From Candidatus Omnitrophota bacterium (GTDB lineage: Bacteria; Omnitrophota; Gorgyraeia; Duberdicusellales; 4484-171), in NCBI GenBank assembly GCA_023134705.1, contig JAGLUN010000051.1:3362-67361 (forward strand): 64,000 nucleotides of DNA. The letters are read 5' to 3'. Within the stretch, counting starts at the first letter, position 1. The number at the start of each line of letters is the position of its first letter. The notes beneath the pieces are model-generated. The model did not search any database. It worked only from the letters and a program-made list of their open reading frames with translations, and was not told the DNA's origin. Below, one piece after another: positions 2,699 to 61,706 of the stretch. Position numbers and translations under genes: made by a program.

Positions 2699-3057
2699 CA
2701 CAGAAAAAAAGACACAGATAAACGCGGATTTTTTTAATTATGATTTAAAAGCGATATTTTCATATCAATCTTGTGAGAATCTCGTGAAAATTTTGTGGTT
2801 AAAAAATAATCCGCGTTAATCAGCTTAATACATTCCAATATGTGTTCTATCAATACTTTAACGTCTTTTTTCATAAAATAATCTCTTCTTCTTCTAATAT
2901 CTTTTCCTTAAGGAGAGAGTGAAGAGAAATATAGGTAACGATATTTTTACCTCCGGACAAAAATATAAGGTTGACATTTATAAAAATATAGTTGATAATT
3001 TAAAGCGAGAGATTTTGAATTTAAAAAAAGAAAGTGTGGTAGAAAATAAAAATTAAA

Positions 3058-3488
3058 TTGGGATTAATAAAAATTAAACACCTCGATTCAAGAGATAAAA
3101 GGAAGACCGAACGCCTTATGCTGGAGGGAAATCTTTGGGATAGGCTTGGTTTTTCTCAGAAATGGACCGGCCCTTTGCCTATAGAAAATATCAGCGGCGG
3201 CGGAATTAACTTCAGATATAAAAAAAGCTTTAAGAGAAATTCCGTGATAAATCCTATGATAGGTTTTCTTGGTGAAGGCGAACCTATAATCGTAAAAGGT
3301 AAAGTGACCTGGCCTAAGGCAATGCCTCCAGGCAAAACTTTAAACAATGAATTTTTACCGGGGGCTGCAAAACAGGCGTTAAGTTCTTCAAGATGGATTA
3401 TAATGACCGCCGCGAATTCATAGATTACTTTAGCGAAAAGGTCATTATTAAATACCTGGATGCCGAAGGCAAAATGGAATCAGAAAAA
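3058..3488 (+). pseudogene. PilZ paralog disrupted by a frameshift (G6 to G5 homopolymer) inside the duplicate copy
   Basis: It is identical in frame to the PilZ at 1131..1571 up to codon 101. From there the reading frame shifts, and the original C-terminus continues in another frame up to 3488. This could be a real pseudogene or a homopolymer sequencing error. Confidence 0.5.
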
Positions 3489-4300
3489 TGAGTTTAGTGA
3501 AAACTACTGCGGCAATATCCCGCGAGACGGATTTACGGACTTTTCTTGGACCTGTCGAGTATAGAGTTGTACGGAATAAAGAAGAGCTAAAGAAATCCTG
3601 CGCTCTCGTGTATAAAGAATACATAAAAAGAGGTTATATGGAAAAGAATTTTTCCGGGTTAAGGATTTCGATCTATAACGCTTTTCCTCAAACAACTACT
3701 TTCATTGCCATTGTCGAACAGGAAGTCATAGCCACAGCTACTATAATACCTGATCTTCCTTTTGGGCTGCCGATGGAGAAGACATACCATGAAGAACTTG
3801 AGAGATTCCGGAAGGACAACAAAAAGATTTGTCAGATATCTATGTTGGCCAGTGACAGCGAGCTTTTTAGCAGCGGAGCTTCAATGATGCTTCAGTCTAA
3901 AAAAATGTTTTTTGTTTTCTTTTTATTCAAACTTATGTTCGATTACGCTAAGAATATCCTTAACCTGGATAATGTATGTATTACAATAAATCCCAAACAC
4001 AATCCCACTTATGATTCTTTATTATTTAAAAATATGGGCGGATTAAAAACATATTCCGATGCCAATGGGGCACCCGCGATAGCAAAATTCCTGGATTTAA
4101 ATTCTGTCGAAACAGCCAGGATGTTTTTCTGGAGAAAAGCCGATCCTGAGAAATTTTCCGGCAAATTTATATTCAGCCATCAGGATTTAAAATACTTTTT
4201 CACCGAGAAAACAGATATCTTTAAAAACGCCACCCCTTTTCAACTAGATTGCCTTAAACGCTGCTATCCCGCTTACGACTTCTCAACGATTATTCCTTAA
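3488..4300 (+). CDS. Divergent paralog (270 aa, intact) of the GNAT-like N-acyl amino acid synthase-like protein
   Basis: It aligns over its full length to 1568..2410 with scattered substitutions and one 10-aa deletion. The frame is intact. Confidence 0.4.
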   Translation: MSLVKTTAAISRETDLRTFLGPVEYRVVRNKEELKKSCALVYKEYIKRGYMEKNFSGLRISIYNAFPQTTTFIAIVEQEVIATATIIPDLPFGLPMEKTYHEELERFRKDNKKICQISMLASDSELFSSGASMMLQSKKMFFVFFLFKLMFDYAKNILNLDNVCITINPKHNPTYDSLLFKNMGGLKTYSDANGAPAIAKFLDLNSVETARMFFWRKADPEKFSGKFIFSHQDLKYFFTEKTDIFKNATPFQLDCLKRCYPAYDFSTIIP

Positions 4301-4380
4301 GGATTTCACTTTGGATTATAATTTAAACTTTTATTTTCGGTTTTCTATTTTATGGTGTCTTGAATCTGGTATCTATTCAG

Positions 4381-4640
4381 AATTGATATTACGAGTATCT
4401 AGCATCCAGTATCGAGCTTCGCGTATCGCGTATCGAGCATCGCGTATTGCGTATCGAGTATCTAGCATCGAGGATCCAGGATCCAGGATCGAGGATCTAA
4501 AAGATTGTTCCTCATCTTTCGTCCCTCGTCCAAGTGAACGAAGTGAACGGTCGTCTCTCGTTCCTCGTTTTTCCTGTCCCCTCTCTTCTGTTCTCTAATT
4601 TTTATCTTCTAACGAGCATCTAGGATCAAGGATCTAAAAG
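4381..4640. repeat. Family-A composite intergenic repeat: CGCGTATCG-type octamer array, GATCCAGG/GATCGAGG units, then a CGTCCCTCGTC tract
   Basis: Tandem 8-9 bp units are read directly. The same composite recurs at 5521, 7834, 24496, 51271 and 57420. Confidence 0.8.
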
Positions 4641-4776
4641 GTTACATAAAGTTACTTAAAGTTACATAAGGTTACTTAAAGTTGCTTTAACGTGAAGCAA
4701 CCTTCCCTAACCTTAAGTAACGTTCTCAAAGTAACCTTCTTTAAGTAACCTTATTAGCCATCGACCATTGACTTCC
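4641..4776. repeat. Family-B element: imperfect palindrome built from GTTAC units phased every 10-11 bp, ending in GCCATCGACCATTGACTTCC
   Basis: The left arm is GTTACATAAAGTTACTTAAAGTTACATAAGGTTACTTAAAGTTGC. The centre is TTTAACGTGAAGCAACC. The right arm is the reverse-complement GTAACC units. Confidence 0.8.
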
Positions 4777-4801: not shown

Positions 4802-5143
4802 TTATTTCAAATATTCTTTTATTTTCAGCATTTTATTTTTTATATCCGGGATGTCCCGTAGTACAACTTCTAAAGTTAATTTCAAATCTATGCCGAAATA
4901 TTCATGTATAAGGATATCCCTCATACCGGCAATCTTTTTCCATGGAATCTCCGGATATTTTTCTTTTATGTCATCGGAAATATTCTTAACTGCTTCCCCG
5001 ATAATTTCGATACGGCGAATAACGGAATCCTGAAGCTGGACAGAGCCAAAAAAGTCATTGTCTGTTTTATCCCGCATATACTTTTCAACCAGCTCAATAG
5101 ATTCCAATATATGTTCTATCAATACTTTAACGTCTTTTTTCAT
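4802..5143 (-). CDS. hepT: HepT-like HEPN toxin (DUF86) of a HepT/MntA toxin-antitoxin pair
   Basis: It carries the Rx4HxY motif (RDILIHEY) and is 113 aa. It overlaps the upstream partner by 4 bp. Confidence 0.75.
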
Positions 5144-5427
5144 AAAATAATTTCTTGTTCTTCTAATATCTTTTCTTTAAGGAGGGGGTGAAGAGAAGCG
5201 TAGGTGACGATATCTACTTTTCTCCCCAGTAACTCCTGAAGTTCCAATTTTAAACCTACCAGATCTAATAAACTTTTTTTTTCTCCAAACTCAATAAGCA
5301 AATCAATATCACTTTCCTTTGTGATTTCGTTTCTTACAACCGAACCAAAAAGGGCGGCTTTTTTTACATTATGCTTTTTCAGTATTTTGTGAAAAACCTT
5401 TTTTATTTCATCAATCTGGATATCCAT
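5140..5427 (-). CDS. mntA: MntA-like minimal nucleotidyltransferase antitoxin
   Basis: It carries [17 protein letters not shown] (the GS...DxD nucleotidyltransferase motif). It is 95 aa and translationally coupled to hepT. Confidence 0.75.
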
Positions 5428-5636
5428 AAGTAGATTTGCTAAGGCACCCGTGAATAATAATGAAACAACTTAGTCCGATTATATAATAGCTTTATGTGCT
5501 TGTCAATAAAACCAGCGTTTTCTATTCGCGTATCGCATATCGAGGATCTAACAGATTATTCCTCCTCTCTCGTCCTTCATCTCTATATTCTTTACGAGTA
5601 TCGAGCATCGAGGATCTAGCATCAAGGATCTAAAAG

Positions 5637-5672
5637 GTTACATAAAGTTGCATAAAGTTACATAAGGTTGCG
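5637..5672. repeat. Family-B forward arm (GGTTACATAAAGTTGCATAAAGTTACATAAGGTTGCG) on the left of the four-helix-bundle gene
   Basis: It has the same phased GTTAC units as 4641..4690. The matching reverse arm lies at 6108..6225, on the other side of the gene. Confidence 0.7.
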
Positions 5673-6128
5673 TTTTTTTCGCAGCTTTGCGCCGGGGACT
5701 TTCCATGTTCCTTCCCGCTCCATCTTATACAAAGATTTAAGATATTGTCCAGTCATATAAGTCGCGCTTTGAAATAATTTCGAAAATGCGTCGAATTCTT
5801 TTTTGCTAATCAATCCGTCATCTTTGCAATCTTCAACATCGCCGCTTAATTCTTCTAAAGAACCCAGACTAATTCTAATGCTATGGATATATTCACCTAG
5901 AGTTCCTTTTCTATATCCCTCCCGTATATTTTGTTTTGCGCTTCTTGCGGCATCTCTCATTTGCGAAATCAGTCTTAGATGTATTGTTGAAAATCTTTTC
6001 GTTATTTTATGAATGAACTTACGTATTTGATAAATATCCTGATAAAATTTTAGCTTTTCATAGGCCAGAGTTTCCCGTCTTTCGTGTATTCTTTCGTCCA
6101 TTTCCTCTCTAACCTTCCCTAACCTCAA
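5658..6128 (-). CDS. Four-helix-bundle protein of the 23S rRNA intervening-sequence-associated family
   Basis: It carries ARSAKQNIREGYRKGT and SIRISLGSLEEL, the family core motifs (compare SxxNIAEG ... SxxExxxxL). It is 156 aa. Confidence 0.65.
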   Translation of the reverse strand: MRLGKVREEMDERIHERRETLAYEKLKFYQDIYQIRKFIHKITKRFSTIHLRLISQMRDAARSAKQNIREGYRKGTLGEYIHSIRISLGSLEELSGDVEDCKDDGLISKKEFDAFSKLFQSATYMTGQYLKSLYKMEREGTWKVPGAKLRKKRNLM

Positions 6129-6225
6129 GTAACTTTCTTAACGTAACCCTCTCAACGTAACCTTCTCTAACTTTAAGTAACTTTCTCAATGTACCCTTCC
6201 CCATGTAACCTTATGTACCCTTCCC
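6108..6225. repeat. Family-B reverse arm (GTAACC/TAACC units) on the right of the four-helix-bundle gene
   Basis: The sequence AACCTTCCCTAACCTCAAGTAACTTTCTTAACGTAACCCTCTCAACGTAACCTTCTCTAAC is nearly identical to 7783..7830 and 53880..53960. Confidence 0.75.
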
Positions 6226-7623: not shown

Positions 7624-7690
7624 TATAATTATGTATTATAGTTTAGTTATAACTAAATTTCAATACATTACTAAAAAGGTTAGATAAACG

Positions 7691-7833
7691 ATTACATAAA
7701 GTTATTTAAAGTTGCATTAACGTTACGTAACCTTCTTAACGCAACCTTCCCTAACCTTAAGTAACCTTCTCTAAGTAGCCTTCTCTACGTAACCTTCCCT
7801 AACCTCAAGTAACTTTCTTAACGTAACCTTCTC
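7691..7833. repeat. Family-B palindromic element with a short forward arm and a long reverse arm
   Basis: The sequence runs ATTACATAAAGTTATTTAAAGTTGCATTAACGTTACGTAACC, followed by phased GTAACC units. Confidence 0.8.
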
Positions 7834-7925
7834 ATCTCACTTGTATCTCTATATTCTTTGCGAGTATCTAGCATCGAGCATCCAGCATCTAAAGTGTTAT
7901 CCCTCATCTTTCGTCCCTCGTCTCT
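7834..7925. repeat. Family-A repeat segment (GCATCGAGCATCCAGCATC units, then CGTCCCTCGTC)
   Basis: It has the same units as 4396..4560. Confidence 0.7.
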
Positions 7926-17839: not shown

Positions 17840-18035
17840 ATAGGGGTTTTTGTTAGTATTTTTTTATACACGCAGATTTTTTCGTATCGCGTATCGAGTA
17901 TCGCGTATTGCGTAAAGAAAGTCGATAGTTAATAGCTGATAGTGGGAAAAGTAAGGCGTTAAATAGTTTTACGAGTTAGCGAGTTGAACGAGTTTAACGA
18001 GTTTTAATGAAAAGGATAGAGGTTTTTTATGAAAA

Positions 18036-18140
18036 ATTGTAAAGTTTTTCGAATGTGTAAAGGAAAGCGACAGATTTCGTGGAAATATGCTTTGTGAAAT
18101 GTACTTCCTGAAATACATGGAAATATAGTTGAAATAAATT
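18036..18140 (-). promoter_or_regulatory. Upstream activator-like region with direct repeats of the TGAAATA/GGAAATA type; candidate enhancer for the sigma-54 activator
   Basis: It reads GGAAATATGCTTTGTGAAATGTACTTCCTGAAATACATGGAAATATAGTTGAAATAAAT. The same block is present at 19413..19630, 20690..20740 and 58040..58125. Confidence 0.45.
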
Positions 18141-18192
18141 GTCTGCCATAGGCTCTTCCAAAGGCAGATCCTCCTCATTATGGTGGGAAAAT

Positions 18193-18208
18193 CACGGGCA
18201 TGCCCGTG
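18193..18208. promoter_or_regulatory. Perfect 16-bp palindrome CACGGGCATGCCCGTG
   Basis: It is read directly. An identical copy lies at 19654..19669, at the same relative position in the next intergenic module. Confidence 0.5.
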
Positions 18209-18296
18209 GGGTGTTCCATTAACTTAATTCCCCCTTCTCCCTCGCGCCTATTTCTAAATTGGGATTTGTTTGTGAAGTATGAAGTGTAGAACACAA

Positions 18297-18336
18297 ACAA
18301 AAAGACAGAAGCTTTTATGCTTCTGTCTTTTTTATC
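18297..18336 (-). terminator. Intrinsic terminator hairpin (GACAGAAGC / GCTTCTGTC stem, flanking T/A runs) after the PEP-CTERM gene 18379..19134
   Basis: A 9-bp perfect stem with a 6-nt loop is flanked by T6 on the plus strand and by TTTTTGTTTGT on the minus-strand transcript. Confidence 0.6.
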
Positions 18337-18340
18337 TATT

Positions 18341-18395
18341 CTTCACGCGATACGCAACATGCGATATGCGATACGCATTTACGCGATACGTTTTC
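18341..18395. repeat. Family-A CGCGATACG array overlapping the last codons of the PEP-CTERM gene
   Basis: It reads CACGCGATACGCAACATGCGATATGCGATACGCATTTACGCGATACG. Confidence 0.7.
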
Positions 18396-19134
18396 TCCGC
18401 CTGAATCCCGCACCAGCTAATCCTATAAGCCCGGATCCAAGAAGAAGTATGGTTGCCGGTTCGGGGATAGGAGCTGTGTCGGCATCGTGGGAATATGGAG
18501 CGAAAACATCCTTCGACGTCCCGTTATCTTTATAGTAGGTGCCTGTAAGGTCAAAATGGATAAAAGAAAATATGGGGTTATAACTTATATCGTAAACCTG
18601 AATCTGTCCTAAGTCTTGTCCGTCACTTTCTGCAGGATTCCCCGGATTATAAGACAGGTCATAATTGTAAACAGTTGTCATTACGGCAAGAGGTGTAAAT
18701 AAAAAATCGTCGAGCTCCATAGAGGCATAATAAGTGAGATATATTCCATGAGGAGAAGTCCCTTCAGGTTGTCCGAAAGTTTCAAAATCATCTTTAAAGA
18801 GCTTTATGCCACCAATAGTGATAATCGGTGTTGTCTCTTCTTCAGTTGTCTCTTCTTCATAGGAAAGGTATTGATTTTCAAGGAGTGATATATGAAGTTT
18901 GACCTCGGTTATCTCAGTAAGAGTCCCATTTTTAGAGGCGCCCACGGCCCAGAGTTCAAAAGGATTATCGGTAGTAATCCATGTGTCTTCGCTTTTATCG
19001 GGAAACCAAGGGCTAACTTCATAATAAGTAGAATTAGGAATATAGAGTTGCAGTGCAGAAACAGCAAAAGCCGGAGTTGTAATGCCAAATACTAAAAATA
19101 GAAGCATTAAACCTTTCAACATACTTTTTTTCAT
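18379..19134 (-). CDS. Secreted PEP-CTERM-anchored protein
   Basis: It has the signal peptide MKKSMLKGLMLLFLVFGITTPAFA. Its C-terminus is IPEPATILLLGSGLIGLAGAGFRRRKRIA. Confidence 0.8.
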   Translation of the reverse strand: MKKSMLKGLMLLFLVFGITTPAFAVSALQLYIPNSTYYEVSPWFPDKSEDTWITTDNPFELWAVGASKNGTLTEITEVKLHISLLENQYLSYEEETTEEETTPIITIGGIKLFKDDFETFGQPEGTSPHGIYLTYYASMELDDFLFTPLAVMTTVYNYDLSYNPGNPAESDGQDLGQIQVYDISYNPIFSFIHFDLTGTYYKDNGTSKDVFAPYSHDADTAPIPEPATILLLGSGLIGLAGAGFRRRKRIA

Positions 19135-19210: not shown

Positions 19211-19756
19211 AAGGGGAATTTTGGGGGATGTTTTTTATAAACGATGCTTGATCCTCGATGCTGGATGCTAGATACTAGTAAAGAATAGAGATAAAAGTGA
19301 GATGATAAGGACGAGGGATGAGAAAAGCAAAAATTAGACTCAAGACTTAAGACTCAATAGAGAAAGTCATAAGGTCATAAAGCCAAAAGTTGCCGAAATT
19401 TGGGGGAAAATTGTAAAACTTTTCGAATGTGTAAAGGAAACCGACATGTTTCGGGGAAATATGCTTTGTGAAATGTACTTCCTGAAATACATGGAAATAT
19501 AGTTGAAATGAATAGAGATATATAGAAATATATAGTCCGCCAAGGCGGATCCGCCTCCGGCGGAAAATATATTGAAATATGGTTGAAATAAATTGTCTGC
19601 TATAGGCTTTTCCAAACAAAGGCAGATTCTTCTCGTATGTATGGCGGGAAGATCACGGGCATGCCCGTGGGATGTTCCATTAACTTAATTCCCCTCTCCC
19701 TCGCGCCTATTTTTAAATTGGGATTTTGTTTGTGAAGTATGTAGTGTGTGACATAA

Positions 19757-19795
19757 ACAAAAAGGCAGGAGCTTTTATGCTTCTGCCTTTTTTAT
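19757..19795 (-). terminator. Intrinsic terminator hairpin (AGGCAGGAGC / GCTTCTGCCT) after the PEP-CTERM gene 19857..20567
   Basis: It is a near-perfect stem with a following T-run. It is homologous to the hairpin at 18297..18336. Confidence 0.55.
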
Positions 19796-19856
19796 CTATT
19801 CTTCACGCATTAAGCGATGACCGAAGGGAATCCTGAGTATCCCCGACGGATACGCG

Positions 19857-20567
19857 TTACGAGGTATGTTTTTTTTGCCTGAATCCCGCGCCAATCAATC
19901 CCAAAAGCCCGGATCCAAGAAGAAGAATGGTTGCGGGTTCGGGGATGGGCGGAGTGCCTCTATATTCCAATCGAAAGGGAGTGTCTATATCAGCATGCCA
20001 GTTCCAACGATTATTACGTTCGTCTAGGTGATAGAATCCATCTCCGGTAGCAACCTTTGGTAAACGAAAGTCCGTATCGTCTGTTGTTGTGGCGGCATTT
20101 GAACCATTTAATCCGTAAAAACTAAGCCAATACTCACCGGAAGGAAGACCTAATGGAGTTGGGAGTGTGAATTCAATATCGTAAATTTTGTCAATAGTGG
20201 AAAAAGGGGCTATAGAACTTTGTAAAGCAGTGTAGTCACCAGGTATGAGTATTTGTTCATAAAAAGGAGAGGAAGTATCTGGCTTTCCAGAGCTAGAGTC
20301 GTTGTTAAAAATTGAAAATGTAAATTTTTCGAGTGAATAGTTTATAGTTATGCCTTCTTGAAACCAAACGGTATCTATTGTTGAATCCTGAGGAAGTGTG
20401 AAATCGTCGTAAATGCGCCACTTAGAAGGTGTAAAAGCTTCAGATGAGCGAAGACCTCCAGCAGATGTTCCGATGCCATTATCATAAATAATAATTGCGT
20501 CAGCCGTGCATGTGGAAATTATAATTACAAACATAGTTATAAAGAATATTAATATTCTTTTTCCCAT
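19857..20567 (-). CDS. Secreted PEP-CTERM-anchored protein
   Basis: It has a signal peptide. Its C-terminus is PIPEPATILLLGSGLLGLIGAGFRQKKHTS. Confidence 0.8.
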   Translation of the reverse strand: MGKRILIFFITMFVIIISTCTADAIIIYDNGIGTSAGGLRSSEAFTPSKWRIYDDFTLPQDSTIDTVWFQEGITINYSLEKFTFSIFNNDSSSGKPDTSSPFYEQILIPGDYTALQSSIAPFSTIDKIYDIEFTLPTPLGLPSGEYWLSFYGLNGSNAATTTDDTDFRLPKVATGDGFYHLDERNNRWNWHADIDTPFRLEYRGTPPIPEPATILLLGSGLLGLIGAGFRQKKHTS

Positions 20568-20642: not shown

Positions 20643-20741
20643 ATGAGGATGGATAGACGCAAATTATGAGATACGGTGAGATTGATAGCAATAATATAGT
20701 GGAAATATATAGAAATAGGTTGAAATATAGTTGAAATACAA

Positions 20742-20868
20742 GGTTACTTAAGGTTAGGGAAGGTTACGTAGGAAAGTTACATTGAGAAGGTTGCTTAAAG
20801 AAGGTTACTTCACGTCAACGTAACCTTAAGTAACTTTAAGTAACTTTATGTAACCTTATTTTAATTAA
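20742..20868. repeat. Family-B palindromic element in the opposite orientation
   Basis: It reads AAGGTTACTTAAGGTTAGGGAAGGTTACGTAGG...CACGTCAACGTAACCTTAAGTAACTTTAAGTAACTTTATGTAACC. Confidence 0.75.
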
Positions 20869-47347: not shown

Positions 47348-48448
47348 TTATGACTTTGCGCCCTTGCGACTTTCTCTATTGAGTCTTATGTCTTCTGTTT
47401 TCTGTACTTTGTCCTTCACAACCTGCATTCCTTCCTGCAATCGTTGCCCATACATCTTTTTATAGTAATTAAGGTACTCCCCTGACTTAATTTTCATCCA
47501 CCAGCCTTTATTCTGCCTATACCACTCAATTGTTTTTTCTATGCCTTCTTCGAACTTGTATTTAAGCTGCCAGCCTAATTCATTCTTAATTTTAGTTATA
47601 TCCATAGCATACCGTCTATCATGGCCAAGCCTATCTTTTACATAAGTAATTAAGGATTTAGGTTTATTCAAATGTTTTAATATTATTTTTGCTATATTTA
47701 TATTAGTTTCCTCTGAATTTCCTCCGGCATTATAGACTTCTCCTATCCTGCCTTTATGCAAAACAACATCTATTGCCCGGCAAAAATCTTCGGTATAAAT
47801 CCAGTCTCTAACGTTTAAACCGTCTCCGTATAATGGAATGGGTTGATTATCTAAAACATTTGAAATAGTTAAGGGGATATATTTCTCCGGGAATTGATAA
47901 GGCCCGTAGTTATTTGTGCAGCGGACAATTGTTGCCGGAAATTTGAATGTTTCCACATAAGACCGGACTAACAAATCTGAACTTGCTTTTGATGCTGAAT
48001 AAGGACTATTTGGTTGTATTGGCGTTAACTCAGTAAATACCCCTGTCGGACCAAGAGAACCATATACTTCATCAGTCGAAATATGGATAAATTTCTCAAT
48101 ATTGTTTTCTTTTGCCGCTTCTAATAAAACATGAGTGCCAACGATATTTGTTTTTATAAAAGGAATGGAATCTGTAATAGACCGGTCAACGTGTGATTCA
48201 GCGGCAAAATGAACTATAAATGAAATTCCTTCTTCTTTTATTAGATTACTTACCAATTTTCTATCCTCAATCCTTCCCTTAATAAATTTATAATTTGGAT
48301 TACCTTCTATGCTTTTTAAATTTTCTAAGTTACCGGCGTAAGTCAATGCATCTAAATTAATTATCTTATAATCATAATTGTTAAGCATATAATGAATGAA
48401 ATTCGAGCCTATAAATCCACAGCCACCGGTTATTAATATATTTTTCAT
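47348..48448 (-). CDS. rfbB: dTDP-glucose 4,6-dehydratase
   Basis: It carries ILITGGCGFIGSNF and YSASKASSD. It has the full-length RfbB architecture. Confidence 0.85.
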   Translation of the reverse strand: MKNILITGGCGFIGSNFIHYMLNNYDYKIINLDALTYAGNLENLKSIEGNPNYKFIKGRIEDRKLVSNLIKEEGISFIVHFAAESHVDRSITDSIPFIKTNIVGTHVLLEAAKENNIEKFIHISTDEVYGSLGPTGVFTELTPIQPNSPYSASKASSDLLVRSYVETFKFPATIVRCTNNYGPYQFPEKYIPLTISNVLDNQPIPLYGDGLNVRDWIYTEDFCRAIDVVLHKGRIGEVYNAGGNSEETNINIAKIILKHLNKPKSLITYVKDRLGHDRRYAMDITKIKNELGWQLKYKFEEGIEKTIEWYRQNKGWWMKIKSGEYLNYYKKMYGQRLQEGMQVVKDKVQKTEDIRLNRESRKGAKS

Positions 48449-48452
48449 AGTA

Positions 48453-48500
48453 TATTTGATTACACAGATTATTGCTAGATTACACAGATTTCTGTTCGAT
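48453..48500. repeat. Array of GATTACACAGAT-type units (left flank of the GxxExxY gene)
   Basis: It reads GATTACACAGATTATTGCTAGATTACACAGATTTCTGTTCGATTGCTCAGATT. Confidence 0.7.
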
Positions 48501-48508
48501 TGCTCAGA

Positions 48509-48889
48509 TTAAAGAACAAACCTTTTAACTCCACAACTTTTATTGCCGAAATTAACTAATAATCCGACTTTCAAATTAGATGCTCTTAAATAAGAAAGTA
48601 TCTGGTATTTAAAAACATCGGGAATATTGCCTGTTAAGGCTTTAACTTCAACTATAACTTTATCTTCTATGATTAAGTCTAATCTAAGTCTGCCAACATT
48701 CTCTCCTTGATACGAAATCGTAAAACTTTTCTCAGTCTGATACCTTAAGCCTTCCTGTTTTAAAGCTATCTCTAAGGCATTATGGTATATACGCTCATTA
48801 AATCCCGGCCCTAATTCAGAATGAACCCTATAACAACAACCTATTATTTTTTCTGTAAGTGAATCATTATCTTTCATCTGTGTAATCAT
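48509..48889 (-). CDS. GxxExxY-family protein (PD-(D/E)xK-like small selfish/insert gene)
   Basis: It carries LGPGFNERIYHNAL (G..E..Y) and the family end ...GVKRFVL. It is 126 aa. Confidence 0.65.
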   Translation of the reverse strand: MITQMKDNDSLTEKIIGCCYRVHSELGPGFNERIYHNALEIALKQEGLRYQTEKSFTISYQGENVGRLRLDLIIEDKVIVEVKALTGNIPDVFKYQILSYLRASNLKVGLLVNFGNKSCGVKRFVL

Positions 48890-48965
48890 TTTTCATAATC
48901 TGCGTAATCATTTATTATAATCTGTGCCATCATTTTTTATTATCTGTGTAATCTTCCTTTTAATC
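48890..48965. repeat. Array of ATCTGTGTAATC-type units (right flank, inverted relative to the left flank)
   Basis: It reads ATAATCTGCGTAATCATTTATTATAATCTGTGCCATCATTTTTTATTATCTGTGTAATCTTCCTTTTAATCTGTGTAATCA. Confidence 0.7.
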
Positions 48966-49850
48966 TGTGTAATCATTTATTCTAATAAATTTATCGGTAG
49001 ATTCCTCCCATTTTGGGATAGCGATATCTAATGTTTTTTTGATTTTTAAATTCGACATAGCGGAAAACATCGGCCTCTTTGCTTTTGTTTTAAAAGTATC
49101 TATTGAAACGGGAACAATTATATTTTCAGTACCCATTCTATTAATAAAATATCTGGCTAATTCATGTCTTGAAGCATAGCCGGTATTAGTTAGATGGAAT
49201 AAGCCCGTTATGCCTTTTTCTAAACTTAATAATGTAACATTTACAATATTTTCTGTATATGTAGGAACTGAGACTTCATCAGATGTTATTTTAAGCACTT
49301 TAGATTTTTCAGCCCACTGTCTTAACTTGTATAAAAAGTTTTGTTTCCCCTTTCCGATAACCCAACTTAATCTGAATATCAAAAAATCAGATAAACACTC
49401 TTTGATTGCCTGTTCTCCCTCTAATTTGCTTTTACCATATACATTAAGAGGATTTGTCATGTCTTCTTCTACATATAAATCCTGTTTTTGTCCATCAAAC
49501 ACATAGTCTGAACTATAGTGGACTAAAAATATTTTATTTTCTTTACAGATTCTTGCTAAATTCTCGACAGCCTGACTATTTACTAAATGTGCTAATTTTG
49601 AATTTTCTTCGGCTTCATCAACTAGATTATATGCGGCGCAATTAATAATGACATTGGGTTTAGCTTCATTTATTATTGTTCTTGTCTTTGTGAAATCAGT
49701 AATATCCCATTCTTCTTCCGATGGAGCAGCAAAATCAATTTTTCTTTCATGGAAAATTTTCTGAAATTCTTTACTTAATTGCCCTGAAGCGCCTGAAATT
49801 AAAAATTTATTATTCTTCATCGTAAATAAAGCTTTTTTTAATGTTATCAA
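48960..49850 (-). CDS. rfbD: dTDP-4-dehydrorhamnose reductase
   Basis: It has a Rossmann N-terminus (LISGASGQL), is 296 aa and lies in the rfb gene order. Confidence 0.8.
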   Translation of the reverse strand: MITLKKALFTMKNNKFLISGASGQLSKEFQKIFHERKIDFAAPSEEEWDITDFTKTRTIINEAKPNVIINCAAYNLVDEAEENSKLAHLVNSQAVENLARICKENKIFLVHYSSDYVFDGQKQDLYVEEDMTNPLNVYGKSKLEGEQAIKECLSDFLIFRLSWVIGKGKQNFLYKLRQWAEKSKVLKITSDEVSVPTYTENIVNVTLLSLEKGITGLFHLTNTGYASRHELARYFINRMGTENIIVPVSIDTFKTKAKRPMFSAMSNLKIKKTLDIAIPKWEESTDKFIRINDYTD

Positions 49851-53740: not shown

Positions 53741-53990
53741 TTGCGTATCGTGTGAAGAAAGGTTACATAAAGTTACTTAAAGTTAAGGTTACTTAAAGTT
53801 ACATAAGGTTACTTAAAGTTGCTTAAGGTTGCGTTAACGTGAAGTAACCTTCTCAAAGCAACCTTCTCTAACCTTCCCTAACCTCAGGTAACTTTCCCAA
53901 AGTAACCTTCTCTGCGTAACCTTCTTAATGTAACCTTCTTAATGTAACCTTCTCTAAGTACCTTATCAGCTATCGACCATCGACTTCCTT
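53741..53990. repeat. Family-B element (the largest copy) with the terminus CAGCTATCGACCATCGACTTCC
   Basis: It reads AAGGTTACATAAAGTTACTTAAAGTTAAGGTTACTTAAAGTTACATAAGGTTACTTAAAGTTGCTTAAGGTTGCGTTAACGTGAAGTAACC, followed by nine reverse GTAACC/TAACC units. Confidence 0.85.
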
Positions 53991-55342: not shown

Positions 55343-55510
55343 CTCTCACCTTTTTTTATTTAACCACATTTTTTTTGACAGGATTAACTGGATTAACAAG
55401 ATAAAATTTCATATTTAACCACAAGATTACACTAGATCTTGATACTTTAAAATCTTCTTAACAATTTAATCGCGGATTATTTTTTTACCACGAAGTTCAC
55501 GAAGGTTTTA

Positions 55511-55957
55511 TCATAGAACAAATCTTTTTATTCCTAATTTTAATTTTTCAACGTTAAAATTAAGCAATAACCCAACTTTAATTTTTGCCAATTTCATATA
55601 AGTTAGTATTTGAGCTTCGTGTATGCCTAAAATTTTATCAACGCTTTTTAATTCTATAATAAGCTTATTTGCTATAAGAATATCGATACGATATCCACAA
55701 TCTAATTTAATCCCGTTATATTCTATCGGTAAAGAACATTGTAGAGTAAACGGTATATCTGATAGTTTTAATTCATGAGCTAAACATTGTTCATAAGCCG
55801 ATTCAAGTAAGCCTGGTCCAAGAGCCCGGTGTACTTTTATGGCACAACCTATAACTTTATTTGATAATTCATCAAATTTTACTTCGTGTCCTTCGTGTTT
55901 AAAATATTTATTTACCGGCACTTCTTCCATACTCATCTTCCAGCCTCTGGATATCAT
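55511..55957 (-). CDS. GxxExxY-family protein (second copy)
   Basis: It carries LGPGLLESAYEQCL and the end GIKRFVL. The start is probably internal (M8 or M10), so the overlap with manC may be shorter. Confidence 0.6.
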   Translation of the reverse strand: MISRGWKMSMEEVPVNKYFKHEGHEVKFDELSNKVIGCAIKVHRALGPGLLESAYEQCLAHELKLSDIPFTLQCSLPIEYNGIKLDCGYRIDILIANKLIIELKSVDKILGIHEAQILTYMKLAKIKVGLLLNFNVEKLKLGIKRFVL

Positions 55958-58039: not shown

Positions 58040-58140
58040 ATTGAAATATGCTTCGCGAAATATACTTCGTGAAATATACTTCATGAAATATATAGATATA
58101 GATAGAAATAAATGGAAATATGTTGAAATAAATAGTCCGC
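58040..58140 (-). promoter_or_regulatory. GAAATAT direct-repeat block (14-bp period) upstream of the small PEP-CTERM gene, homologous to the blocks at 18036 and 19413
   Basis: It reads CGCGAAATATACTTCGTGAAATATACTTCATGAAATATATAG...GGAAATATGTTGAAATAAATAGTCCGCCATTGGCGG. Confidence 0.45.
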
Positions 58141-58179
58141 CATTGGCGGAAAATATAATTGGAATACATCTTTATTGCT

Positions 58180-58578
58180 TTAATCTTCATTTTTGGCCTT
58201 AGTTTTTGATTTGTATGTTGAACTTATAAAGTTATTTAATTTGATTGATAATTTCTTGCTCAATTTTTCCATTTTGTTAAAAATATCTTTATCGATAATC
58301 TTTCGTTCATGGAGTAAAGATAACCAATGTTCACACGATTCACTTAAAGACGCACGGCTGGTATAATAGAACTTAATCCTATCTAAGAAGTGATATCTTT
58401 TATACCCTTCAGCAATGTTTGCCCCTACAGAATCGATAGATTCAATAAATTGATCTCCCATAATCTTCTTTTCATGCCAATTCAATGCGCTATAGATTTC
58501 CCATGCAATTCCTGATAATTCTCTGGATATCCTGTAAACCTCTAAATCCTTCAGTTCTATATATTTCTTTATATCCAT
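58180..58578 (-). CDS. Four-helix-bundle protein (23S IVS-associated family), second copy
   Basis: It carries SVGANIAEGYKRYH and YYTSRASLSESCEHW. It is 132 aa. Confidence 0.65.
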   Translation of the reverse strand: MDIKKYIELKDLEVYRISRELSGIAWEIYSALNWHEKKIMGDQFIESIDSVGANIAEGYKRYHFLDRIKFYYTSRASLSESCEHWLSLLHERKIIDKDIFNKMEKLSKKLSIKLNNFISSTYKSKTKAKNED

Positions 58579-58603
58579 TCTATATCTATATATTGATATA
58601 TCT

Positions 58604-59581
58604 CTACCCTTTCACCAGTTGGCTTTTAAAATATTCGACTGTTCTCCTAAGGCCTTGTTCAAAATCAACTATGGGTTTGAAGCCAAGCATTGACTTGATT
58701 TTAGAAACATCGGCTAAGGTTTTGAATACGTCTCCTTTGCGTACAGGTAAAAATTCCGGTTGGATATTTTTGCCGATGATTTTATTGAGTGAGTCAACTA
58801 TGCTTAATACAGTGTTGTCTTTTCCGTTGGCAACGTTAAGAATCGTATTGCGTATCGCGTATTGCGTATCGCGTAAAGGGACGGTGGCGGCAAGGATGTT
58901 GGCTTCAACTACGTTATCAATATAAGTAAAATCACGGGATTGTTTGCCATTACCAAAAATCGGCGGTTGTTCATTATTAAGAATGCAATGGATAAATTTA
59001 GGGATAACTACAGCGTATTCGTCGTCTAATGCCTGCCTTGGGCCGAACACGTTAAAGTAACGCAGGCTTACTGTTTCCAGGCCGAAGTTCTCGCTGAAAA
59101 TCCGGCAGTAATATTCACCGGCTAATTTAGTCAAAGCGTAAGGAGAAATAAGTAACGGATAGGCGGTTTCCTTCTCAGGGAATTTGTCGGTATCTCCATA
59201 AACAGAACTTGATGACGCAAAGACCAAACGTTTCGTCCCGCACTCTCCACCGGCTTTAAGCATATTTAAAGTGCCATTAATATTTACCTCGTTATATTCA
59301 TAAGGGTTATTCATTGATTTAGGTACACTGCGTAAGGCGGCCTGGTGGAATATAATTTCGATACCTTTACAGGCTCTTAGACAAGTATCATAGTCACAGA
59401 TATCGCCTCTGATTAGTCGATAGTCGATGGCCGATTGTCCATAGCTGGATACAAAAGAGAGGTTCTCTTCTTTTCCGGAAGAGAAGTTATCAAGTACAAC
59501 CACGTCATTTCCTTCCTTCAGTAATCGTTCAACAATATGTGAACCGATAAATCCTGCTCCGCCGGTTACCAATGCTTTCAT
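58604..59581 (-). CDS. NAD-dependent UDP-sugar 4-epimerase (GalE/WbpP-like extended SDR)
   Basis: It carries ALVTGGAGFIGSH and YALTKLAGE and is 325 aa. The codons 58849..58880 are a family-A repeat unit (see findings). Confidence 0.75.
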   Translation of the reverse strand: MKALVTGGAGFIGSHIVERLLKEGNDVVVLDNFSSGKEENLSFVSSYGQSAIDYRLIRGDICDYDTCLRACKGIEIIFHQAALRSVPKSMNNPYEYNEVNINGTLNMLKAGGECGTKRLVFASSSSVYGDTDKFPEKETAYPLLISPYALTKLAGEYYCRIFSENFGLETVSLRYFNVFGPRQALDDEYAVVIPKFIHCILNNEQPPIFGNGKQSRDFTYIDNVVEANILAATVPLRDTQYAIRNTILNVANGKDNTVLSIVDSLNKIIGKNIQPEFLPVRKGDVFKTLADVSKIKSMLGFKPIVDFEQGLRRTVEYFKSQLVKG

Positions 59582-60590: not shown

Positions 60591-60800
60591 CTCAGGATTC
60601 CCTTCGGTCATTTCGTATTGCGTATCGCGTATCGCGTATTGCGTTATAAATTCCTTTTACTAACTTTATACCTTTTTTCCAAACTCTTAAATCTCTAAAA
60701 TATTTTATTTTGTCTTCCATTTTGTCATATTTGTGTTTTGTACGCGATACGCGATACTCGTTACGCGATACGCTATTATTGCTTTCATAAATTTCGTATT
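60591..60800. repeat. Family-A arrays in inverted orientation bracketing a 5' fragment (about 60650..60740) of a four-helix-bundle gene
   Basis: 60611..60645 reads CGTATTGCGTATCGCGTATCGCGTATTGCG. 60745..60790 reads GTACGCGATACGCGATACTCGTTACGCGATACG. 60650..60740 is about 90 percent identical to 61092..61180. Confidence 0.75.
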
Positions 60801-60803
60801 GCG

Positions 60804-61163
60804 TTATAATTTTTTTGCTAAATTAGTAATCATTCTACAAATATGGTCGATTATTTCTGTTAATTCGTTTTCTTTGTCTTCTTTTATGTAAGACAATTCT
60901 TTTGTAATTATCACCTGGGTTTCTAATTCCGCGCAGGAACCTAAAGATATATTGAGAAATTGTTTGTATTCTTTGTTATGTTTTCGTCTAAAACCCTCTG
61001 CTATGTTAGAAGGGATAGAAATGGCACATCTTCTCATTTGAGAAGAAAGTCCATATTGTTCTTCTTTAGGGAAACTTTTCGTTGTTTTATAAATTTCTTT
61101 TACTAGCTCTATACCTTTTTTCCAAACTCTTAAATCTCTAAAACGTCTTATTTTGTCTTCCAT
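60804..61163 (-). CDS. Four-helix-bundle protein (23S IVS-associated family), third copy
   Basis: It carries RRCAISIPSNIAEGFRRKH and NISLGSCAELETQ. It is 119 aa. Confidence 0.7.
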   Translation of the reverse strand: MEDKIRRFRDLRVWKKGIELVKEIYKTTKSFPKEEQYGLSSQMRRCAISIPSNIAEGFRRKHNKEYKQFLNISLGSCAELETQVIITKELSYIKEDKENELTEIIDHICRMITNLAKKL

Positions 61164-61214
61164 ATTGTCATATTTGTTTGTACGCGATACGCAATACGCG
61201 TTACGCGATACGAA

Positions 61215-61706
61215 TCACGCGATACGCGTTACAATATTTTTAAAGAATATAATTGCTCCCACAATTACCGCGTTTATTGAGGCTAAGAGGACCCCGGCAG
61301 CGGCAATGTCTTTAACCAGTTTAACCGAAGGATGATATTTCTTGCCGTTTAAAAAGTCTAAGCTTAACTCTAAAGCCGTGTTAATAATTTCACAAGCAAT
61401 AACAAAGATCATGGCTAAAAACAAAATTGCCATTTCTAAATAAGAAACCTTAATCAAAAGACTTAAGACAATGACCGATAATCCCGTAATAATATGTATA
61501 CGGATGTTCCTTTGGCTTTTTAAAGCGAATTTAAGCCCTTCCCAGGCACAAACAAAGCTGCTCAATAAATTTCTTCGTTTATTAAAAATATTTAAGGGAT
61601 AATTGTTAACCTCTAATGAAGAAGCATTAGCGGTTAAGGGATTAGGTCCGGAATGATTATTTTTTACAACTTCATCCATCCCTTGACCAAGATTAATCTC
61701 CGGCAT
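61215..61706 (-). CDS. dgkA: Diacylglycerol/undecaprenol kinase (DgkA family)
   Basis: It carries EIINTALELSLDF and VKDIAAAGVLLASINAVIVG, and has three transmembrane helices. The start is assigned at the internal Met to avoid the upstream overlap. The ORF could extend to 61772. Confidence 0.55.
   Translation of the reverse strand: MPEINLGQGMDEVVKNNHSGPNPLTANASSLEVNNYPLNIFNKRRNLLSSFVCAWEGLKFALKSQRNIRIHIITGLSVIVLSLLIKVSYLEMAILFLAMIFVIACEIINTALELSLDFLNGKKYHPSVKLVKDIAAAGVLLASINAVIVGAIIFFKNIVTRIA

Follow-up and report, generated by a model that had tools for sequence, protein, structure and literature searches.

We identified, in a 64,000-nucleotide (nt) stretch of DNA from a Candidatus Omnitrophota bacterium (contig JAGLUN010000051.1; hereafter the window), a small gene enclosed by two inverted arrays of short tandem repeats. 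The gene (5658-6101; here 4HB1) encodes a four-helix-bundle protein of the PF05635 family, and together with the two arrays (its arms) it probably forms one genetic unit, a hairpin cassette of the type known from intervening sequences (IVSs) of ribosomal RNA (rRNA), situated here between protein-coding genes. The window has a G+C content of 35.6%, and the same DNA is present in the ENA metagenome ERZ23498525. An earlier, sequence-only reading had placed arms of a repeat family, family B, at 5637..5672 and 6108..6225, with the gene filling the centre of the palindrome. The positions are borne out by Tandem Repeats Finder arrays and inverted pairs, and the filled centre by a PF05635 match between the arms and by four solo copies of the palindrome with centres of only ~20 bp.

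Gene and arms of the cassette

The open reading frame (ORF) at 5658-6128 matches PF05635 with 63.5 bits (cut-off 33.8) and TIGR02436 with 58.1 bits (cut-off 24). Pfam and NCBIfam gave only these two families for it, and hence no HUH/Y1 (RAYT) transposase. Translation likely starts at the ATG at 6101, the ENA record likewise calling a protein of 147 amino acids (aa), and a Shine-Dalgarno-like GAGAGGAAA lies immediately upstream of the gene. The final five codons and the stop are encoded within the 10-mer arm. The nearest solved structure is the pentameric XCC0516 (PDB 2gsc, E=5.5e-5), a similarity by which the 4HB1 protein may be a homopentamer. Nothing in the present sequence analysis supports a nuclease or homing activity of the four-helix-bundle protein, for which a test had been proposed.

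The downstream arm holds, by Tandem Repeats Finder, 3.3 copies of a 10-nt unit at 5637-5669, with matches to the B pattern at 5634, 5644 and 5654. The upstream arm (in gene orientation) is made mainly of 14-nt units, with 10-nt units at its outer end (6203-6222); here the program places inverted arrays of period 14/48 at 6110-6212 and of period 10 at 6203-6222. The best inverted pair, 5644-5674 with 6154-6184, spans 31 nt at 84% complementarity, and a second joins 5634-5653 to 6203-6222. The element thus combines an S23p-family ORF with terminal repeats capable of forming a stem, as IVSs do. No Rfam family, hence no rRNA, was matched anywhere in the window, and the cassette instead occupies the 3' end of an AbiEii/AbiEi operon, upstream of the promoter of an MNT/HEPN gene pair. 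No promoter-like site was seen in the upstream arm of this copy. A perfect sigma-70 consensus (TTGACA, 17 nt, TATAAT) on the minus strand at 5506-5478, just downstream of the cassette, serves the MNT/HEPN toxin-antitoxin pair. A telomere-like reading of the arms was rejected, as their polarity is opposite, with G-rich 5' ends.

With up to three mismatches allowed, the B motif AAGGTTACATAAAGTTAC has 21 occurrences in the window, where 0.1 would be expected. Besides the arms of 4HB1, it makes up the four solo palindromes (Table 1), which lack an ORF and lie in the same 64 kb as the filled copy. The solo palindrome at 4638-4752 is 82% identical to 7685-7796, and the 6108-6225 arm is 82-86% identical to the solo-copy arms at 7743-7831 and 53865-53966. 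Solo and filled copies have in common an unusual pairing of a 10-mer with a 14-mer arm and the inner segment CCTTCCCTAACCTYAAGTAAC.

The same composite module precedes one solo palindrome (4638) and the filled one (5634). It comprises an A-type array, ATCTAA.AGATT.TTCCTC, TCGTCC-type heptamers, CTCTATATTCTTTACGAG, a second A-type array and GGATCTAAAAGG, and it runs from 4497 to 4640 and from 5545 to 5636, respectively. The B elements thus either lie within a larger mosaic repeat or were copied along with it.

Recurrence of the gene with its arms

Five small genes in the window, three of the PF05635 family (4HB1, 4HB2 and 4HB3) and two of the GxxExxY (PDDEXK_3) family (PDX1 and PDX2), each lie inside inverted repeats of a different family. 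When the 60 genes of the window were scored for flanking inverted repeats, PDX1, 4HB2 and 4HB1 ranked highest.

We scanned species-representative genomes with the B motif alone and obtained at least 109 matches, most of them single chance matches. Among the matches listed, three loci carry a four-helix-bundle gene, 57-70% identical, inside inverted GGTTAC arrays: L053 (Omnitrophota), L035 (Brocadiia) and L109 (Planctomycetia). They represent two phyla, the only informative ones being Omnitrophota and Planctomycetota. The metagenome-assembled genome (MAG) that holds the filled copy L053 also has a solo B palindrome (L075). When an alignment of these proteins was used to scan metagenomes, 80 loci were added (50-78% identity, 33-69% G+C). 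The resulting 4HB1-type set of 84 loci (the window, three genomic and 80 metagenomic loci; Omnitrophota, Planctomycetota and metagenomes) falls into 72 clusters at 90% nucleotide identity. The sample is biased, being centred by one metagenome scan on the 4HB1 subfamily, with small samples of other subfamilies.

Read in the direction of the gene, most of the 84 loci have GTTAC cores in an array upstream and GTAAC cores in an array downstream; typically, about five 10-nt units containing GGTTAC precede the gene and an inverted array follows it. Of the GTTAC cores, 335 are oriented as expected and 16 the other way, with a dominant spacing of 10 nt. Variant cores change in both arms together (GGTTGC/GCAACC, GGTTAA/TTAACC and GGTTATC/GATAACC). 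The complementarity of the arms is specific to the locus: over 66 non-redundant loci, the mean energy of the duplex between matched arms was -52.1 kcal/mol, whereas pairing arms from different loci gave -42.6 and shuffles about -34, and z was below -3 in 65% of these loci. The association of gene and arms is real, non-random and general.

What is conserved is the number of units in an arm, not the length of the arm. Decamer arms have a median of 4.5 copies (interquartile range 4.1-4.6) and heptamer arms 4.4 copies (4.0-4.65; 31 nt). The mode of the upstream chain of core motifs is five (26 of 54 loci), and downstream arms often have just three or four recognisable cores.

In several 4HB1-type loci, including L126 and L053, the sole in-frame start upstream of the peptide AYEKLKFYQ lies inside an ATGTTAC arm unit, 8 nt after AAGG. 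Ribosome-binding site and start codon may thus both be furnished by the arm.

Probable insertion as one unit

For the third four-helix-bundle gene of the window, 4HB3, an insertion is shown. As had been proposed, it is bracketed by inverted family-A arrays, 60612-60644 and 61182-61214, which are complementary over 33 nt at 88%. Its upstream arm rewrites the last codons of the DAGK gene and supplies the stop (..KNIV|TRIA*). In a sister sample (L213; epimerase 79% identical), the operon PGM - DAGK - NTP-transferase - epimerase is retained, DAGK and NTP-transferase overlap (ATGA), and the junction holds neither 4HB3 nor any A array. No clean target-site duplication was found at this one junction compared with the empty site. 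A gene 70% identical to 4HB3 lies at another site in L216/L217, between RhuM and ManC, inside the same GCGTATC-type heptamers in the same orientation.

Across phyla, the arm motif tracks the gene lineage: GGTTAC decamers accompany 4HB1, GCGTATC heptamers 4HB3 and GATTACACAGAT PDX1. Solo palindromes are nearly absent from the other carrier loci (one case in 264 kb). Given the lineage-specific motif, the armless empty site and the rarity of solo palindromes, we conclude that gene and arms probably make up one unit. The selfish, insertable character suggested by the sequence-only reading is supported by the absence of the element from the L213 operon junction and by its different sites in different genomes. 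The proposal that the gene rides as a passenger on an independent repeat, or has inserted into a pre-existing palindrome, is disfavoured by the lineage-specific motif, the armless empty site and the rarity of solo palindromes.

The 4HB3 cassette has also been duplicated in tandem, 61087-61212 matching 60644-60772 at 90.7%. The decayed copy consists of an A arm (60611-60645), a gene remnant (60646-60740), an inverted A arm (60741-60773), a copy of the 5' end of the NTP-transferase gene (60776-60794) and a residual A unit (60795-60803). The first 14 nt of the NTP-transferase gene and ~9 nt upstream of it were copied as part of this whole-cassette duplication. The remnant had been described as a 5'-truncated duplicate at 60650..60740; a truncated copy it is, but in the sense of the gene it is 3'-truncated, retaining the N-terminal ~26-30 codons. 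The copy at 60611-60803 is a plausible intermediate toward an ORF-less palindrome, and the solo palindromes are probably derivatives (decay products) of the cassette.

Other subfamilies and the rRNA intervening sequence

Other PF05635 genes, in fetched loci and viral contigs, are likewise flanked by inverted heptamer arrays, for example GGGCTTT/AAAGCCC, AGTCTGT/ACAGACT and CGTTACA/TGTAACG. Arm complementarity exceeded all 100 shuffles in 21 of 23 loci of these subfamilies. Scans of viral contigs yielded one locus with 4HB3 as the single query protein and, in both scans for the GxxExxY protein, nothing. Five of eight plasmid copies have significant inverted arms (Nostoc punctiforme, Geminocystis, Azospirillum and Riemerella, each with 0/100 shuffles; Gemmatirosa, 1/100), and the genes of Nostoc punctiforme and Geminocystis are flanked by short heptamer arrays. 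PDX1-type genes of ~70% identity (L218, L219 and L220; WOR-3, Deltaproteobacteria and other metagenomes) keep the GATTACACAGAT / ATCTGTGTAATC arms.

Two plasmids of Nostoc sp. PCC 7120, gamma (L228) and alpha (L229), carry identical four-helix-bundle genes with a downstream CTGCCCT heptamer array and no visible upstream array. In L228 the end of an ISL3-family transposase gene lies ~70 nt upstream, and the same transposase-like C-terminal coding sequence, unannotated in the record and read here from the sequence, precedes the gene in L229. The transposase gene may have displaced the upstream arm, and the gene and the end of the insertion sequence (IS) seem to have been copied together.

A further plasmid copy connects the cassettes with rRNA. 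In Azospirillum lipoferum 4B (plasmid AZO_p2, NC_016586.1 13983-15136; L233), an unannotated PF05635 ORF lies inside a 23S rRNA gene (large-subunit model, 523.6 bits) between two arms of five heptamers each, CAGAGGA CGGATGA CAGAGGA CGGAGGA CAGAAAG upstream and CCGTCCT CTGTCTT CTGTCAT CCGTCTT CTGAGTG downstream, and is thus constructed as the cassettes are. In Coxiella, whose IVS carries an ORF of the same family, a 28-bp terminal stem is present and RNase III cleavage within it has been shown experimentally (PMC4990558). The IVS protein has been described as functionally uncharacterised (PMC11270868), and cas operons interrupted by PF05635 genes are known (PMC3936711).

A model of the cassette and the points against it

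Based on these observations, we propose that a cassette consists of about five tandem 7- or 10-nt units, an ORF of 110-150 aa (PF05635, or GxxExxY in sister cassettes) and the reverse-complement array. The whole unit, arms included, would have been inserted into host DNA, as seen at the sister loci and presumably also for 4HB1. By a simple ORF heuristic, both neighbours are co-oriented with the gene at 29 loci of the 4HB1 subfamily and both opposed at none. Because an own promoter is not evident and the genes are nearly always co-oriented with their neighbours, transcription of this subfamily by read-through is probable. In the transcript, by analogy with rRNA IVSs, the arms would pair into a stem of roughly 30-45 bp. 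RNase III would then probably cut this stem, as it does in rRNA, and release the ORF-bearing loop from the host RNA, so that the insertion would be tolerable to the host. Solo palindromes may be cassettes whose ORF was lost by internal deletion.

Weak support for pairing at the level of RNA comes from the mismatches of the arms. In 4HB1-type arms, G:U mismatches outnumber A:C mismatches by 126 to 75, whereas base composition predicts a ratio of 1.07-1.25. Alignments within tandem arrays are ambiguous, and the G:U excess is weak evidence; together with the co-orientation of genes and the lack of a promoter-like site in the upstream arm of the window copy, it is suggestive of RNA-level pairing of the arms in the 4HB1 subfamily.

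Several observations weigh against this model. The G:U excess is absent from 23 other PF05635 loci (27 versus 33) and could partly reflect a C-to-T bias on the sense strand. In a second PF05635 set, both neighbours are opposed at eight loci and co-oriented at four (by a simple ORF heuristic that is unreliable at high G+C); read-through expression is thus not a general rule. At the window locus itself, one arm has a period of 10 nt and the other mostly one of 14 nt, which limits their continuous pairing. The minimum-energy fold of the 606-nt cassette RNA pairs the outer arms, but it is no better than that of shuffles (z = -0.55), and this single-copy fold is thus not evidence for structure. L176 and L181 keep only the 5-nt cores inverted, with spacers that are not complementary. 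In Pseudanabaena galeata (plasmid pPg_01, 45865-47012; L235), a four-helix-bundle gene between cas6 and cas4 has arrays that are direct instead of inverted, ~15 AAAAGCT units upstream and ~10 AAAAGCC units downstream. RNase III processing is known only from rRNA-borne copies. Finally, the search for empty sites that had been advised uncovered the bare junction in L213 for 4HB3, but no orthologous counterpart of this kind for the 5658-6101 locus. L216/L217 was rejected as a candidate for the latter: its AbiEi is 61% identical, but the context is different and other repeats follow downstream.

Alternative explanations

It is possible, on a tentative view, that the arms are binding sites of the protein that they flank, one pentameric ring reading one arm of about five units as RNA or DNA. 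The protein might then regulate its own expression, or maintain and spread the cognate arrays as RAYT does for REPINs. This explanation concerns the purpose of the arms and is compatible with the cassette model. The conserved unit number with its modal upstream chain of five and the five plus five heptamers of the Azospirillum IVS would fit it, as would the pentameric state of XCC0516 and Avd, for which PMC4990558 and PMC3936711 cite literature, PDB 2gsc having five chains. L176 and L181 also keep the core motif and its orientation despite the lost complementarity of their spacers, and within one genome the arms and an array inside a coding gene have unit variants in common. The specificity of the motif to the protein lineage is a further point in its favour, but co-descent of gene and arms alone suffices to account for it. 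Downstream arms, moreover, often have only three or four recognisable cores, and the unrelated GxxExxY nuclease-fold genes show the same architecture with arms of two to four units of ~21 nt. The Coxiella IVS protein is apparently not made in vivo, according to PMC4990558. In its broadest form, in which PF05635 pentamers and GxxExxY proteins are sequence-specific arm readers that maintain, homogenise or spread cognate arrays genome-wide, we consider the idea rather unlikely.

It also appears unlikely that the arms belong, as terminal inverted repeats, to a DNA transposon mobilised in trans. The arms would in that case carry multiple subterminal binding sites for an enzyme encoded elsewhere, the ORF would be cargo, and the solo palindromes would resemble MITEs (miniature transposable elements with inverted repeats). 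Presence/absence polymorphism, near-identical units at different sites, dispersed ORF-less copies and the mixed orientation of the second PF05635 set are as a transposon would predict, and very short contigs, on which repeated DNA tends to end up, hold many of the homologues. Against this, no transposase was found in or beside the cassettes in the profile and neighbour-gene lists, target-site duplication is not clear at the one junction compared, and the 4HB1 set is strongly co-oriented with host genes (29 versus 0). Some cassettes, for example the set adjacent to LarC (L113/L118/L122/L135), persist at one host site across diverged genomes.

We regard as very unlikely that the gene entered the loop of a B palindrome that already existed independently, so that the arms belong to the target. 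The four ORF-less B palindromes with ~20-bp centres in the same window, and the solo palindrome L075 in the MAG of the filled L053, invite such a reading, and rRNA IVSs, which replace the tetraloops of helices 9, 25 and 45 (PMC4990558), show a liking for hairpin loops. However, most of the 84 homologue loci (genomes of 33-69% GC) have cognate arms, the carrier loci are almost free of solo palindromes, the empty DAGK/NTP-transferase junction is armless, and the arms of rRNA IVSs are heptamer arrays and not rRNA sequence.

The notion that the arms are unrelated intergenic repeats adjoining the gene by chance, which an unusual richness of this genome in short intergenic tandem arrays might suggest, is refuted by the layout of gene plus arms in 72 non-redundant loci and in other subfamilies, and by the three top flanking-repeat scores, all of which belong to cassette genes.

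Other features of the window

The coordinates of the cassettes and solo palindromes are collected in Table 1. Both PDX1 and PDX2 exceed the PF13366 and TIGR04256 cut-offs. The 'KHEGHEV' at the N terminus of the PDX2 ORF stems from translation of the arm. 4HB3 has a sub-threshold match to bAvd (32.8 bits, cut-off 40), and 4HB1 has no Avd match.

Table 1. Cassettes, their arms and solo palindromes in the window
Feature	Position	Strand	Description
Solo B palindrome	4638..4752		10-mer arm, ~20-bp centre (GTTGCTTTAACGTGAAGCAAC), 14-mer arm
4HB1 downstream arm	5634..5672		family-B 10-nt array, AAGGTTACAT-type, ~3.5 units
4HB1 gene	5658..6101	minus	four-helix-bundle, 147 aa from ATG at 6101; TTG ORF reaches 6128
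4HB1 upstream arm (gene orientation)	6108..6225		inverted family-B array, GTAACC cores on + strand
Solo B palindrome	7680..7834		ORF-less
Solo B palindrome	20740..20858		opposite orientation
PDX1 cassette, GxxExxY (PDDEXK_3)	48438..48994	minus	gene 48509-48889; PF13366 127.5 bits, TIGR04256 132.7 bits
PDX1 arms	48438-48511 and 48862-48994		GATTACACAGA-type; 48438-48471 / 48961-48994, 34 nt, 79%
Solo B palindrome	53759..53968		inside sugar-nucleotide operon
PDX2 cassette, GxxExxY	55479..55957	minus	ORF 55511-55957, domain from residue 30; PF13366 146.4 bits, TIGR04256 151.3 bits
PDX2 arms	55479-55504 and 55882-55907		CACGAAG-type, inverted; 26 nt, 81%
4HB2 cassette	58085..58602	minus	gene 58180-58578 (132 aa); PF05635 73.7 bits
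4HB2 arms	58085-58135 and 58550-58602		58087-58102 / 58579-58594, 16 nt, 100% complementarity
Duplicated, decayed 4HB3 cassette copy	60611..60803		keeps both arms, gene remnant only
4HB3 gene	60804..61163	minus	119 aa; PF05635 146.9 bits; NF008911, TIGR02436
4HB3 upstream arm	61181..61232		family-A heptamers, TACGCGA on + strand

A family-A heptamer array also occurs in frame within the short-chain dehydrogenase/reductase (SDR) epimerase gene (58604-59581), where it spans 58844-58875 and encodes ..RDTQYAIRNT... This insertion is shared by the L213 orthologue, whereas L214 has none. In L216 the insertion is at the same loop, with the unit variant of its own genome, AATACTC (encoding TQYSILNT). 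The array units in the epimerase seem to evolve in concert with the other arrays of the same genome.

A segmental duplication of ~1.4 kb (1026-2413 versus 2947-4303, 94-96% identity) covers PilZ-like and FeeM-like genes. A fragment of 127 nt next to its second copy shares 90% identity with the MNT/HEPN gene junction (2818-2944 versus 5087-5213). The spacer between the duplicated segments contains arrays without an ORF at 2490-2530 and 2630-2720, of the same kinds as those beside GxxExxY genes (AACCACAAAG.. and AAGATTACACAGATTCACC), which may be remnants of a lost cassette. A non-coding block of ~400-500 nt is repeated 3' of two neighbouring minus-strand genes (18033-18468 versus 19407-19946, 82-93% identity). 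Within the block are GAAATA-type 10-nt arrays, GC-rich hairpins (ATCACGGGCATGCCCGTGGG) and a terminator-like stem, and its first copy is bracketed by inverted family-A arrays (17883-17914 and 18345-18390).

Significance

PF05635 and GxxExxY genes are among the commonest small bacterial genes of unknown function and are scattered in operons, defence loci and rRNA genes. Our results point to a packaging of these genes inside inverted arms that are specific to the lineage and consist of about five short tandem repeats, and to the same construction for the classic rRNA intervening sequence. One class of element would thereby tie together IVS ORFs, operon-interrupting four-helix-bundle genes and at least a part of the intergenic heptamer and decamer arrays. 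For annotation, the cassettes account for spurious N- and C-terminal extensions and for repeat-derived peptide insertions in neighbouring genes. Should the proteins prove to read their arms, the result would be a partnership like that of REPIN and RAYT with a different protein, and would account for the enigmatic STRR-type heptamer arrays of cyanobacteria, xanthomonads and others and for the function of the IVS protein.

Comparison with known systems

In our non-exhaustive search of open-access full text, we found no prior link of PF05635 or GxxExxY genes to flanking repeat arrays. The REPIN-RAYT system resembles the cassette in having a small gene inside inverted cognate repeats, with a repeat family specific to the gene lineage. 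Like the B family, with its four doublets in 64 kb, it also has hairpin-forming doublets dispersed in intergenic DNA. However, RAYT is an HUH/Y1 transposase whereas the cassette proteins are four-helix bundles or have the GxxExxY PD-(D/E)XK fold; REPINs are built from single REP palindromes whereas the cassette repeats are tandem arrays of 7-10-nt units; and solo copies of the cassette are few or absent in most of the carrier genomes sampled.

Short intergenic tandem repeats of 7 nt are also known as cyanobacterial STRR, Xanthomonas GGGAATC and Beggiatoaceae TAACTGA arrays. Intergenic heptamer arrays, including convergent pairs, have been reported for Xanthomonas, Nostoc and Beggiatoaceae (PMC4692102, PMC4679880), and those of Xanthomonas are often convergent inverted pairs (PMC4692102). 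Unlike the cassettes, most described heptamer arrays lack an ORF, and the Beggiatoaceae repeats are direct and lie upstream of start codons (PMC4679880). Terms for PF05635 genes are absent from both PMC4692102 and PMC4679880.

Avd of diversity-generating retroelements has a homologous four-helix-bundle fold and is also a pentamer, but neither a reverse transcriptase (RVT domain) nor template/variable repeats were present in the gene lists around the three PF05635 genes of the window. MITEs and their parent insertion sequences resemble the cassettes in that full-length units occur beside ORF-less derivatives that keep the inverted ends; the cassettes differ in having neither a transposase nor an evident target-site duplication.

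The closest known entity to the 4HB1 element is the ORF-bearing rRNA IVS. The 23S rRNA IVSs of Leptospira, Coxiella and Brucella have an ORF of the same family (S23p / PF05635), a similar size (~430-760 nt, compared with 592 nt for the window cassette) and, like it, terminal inverted repeats, and that of Azospirillum has five-heptamer arms like those of the cassettes. The window copy departs from them in lying between protein-coding genes and not in helix 9, 25 or 45 of the rRNA, in its 10- and 14-nt units of differing period, and in the ORF-less copies dispersed in its genome. Overall, the 4HB1 element has the structure of an ORF-bearing IVS at a location outside rRNA.

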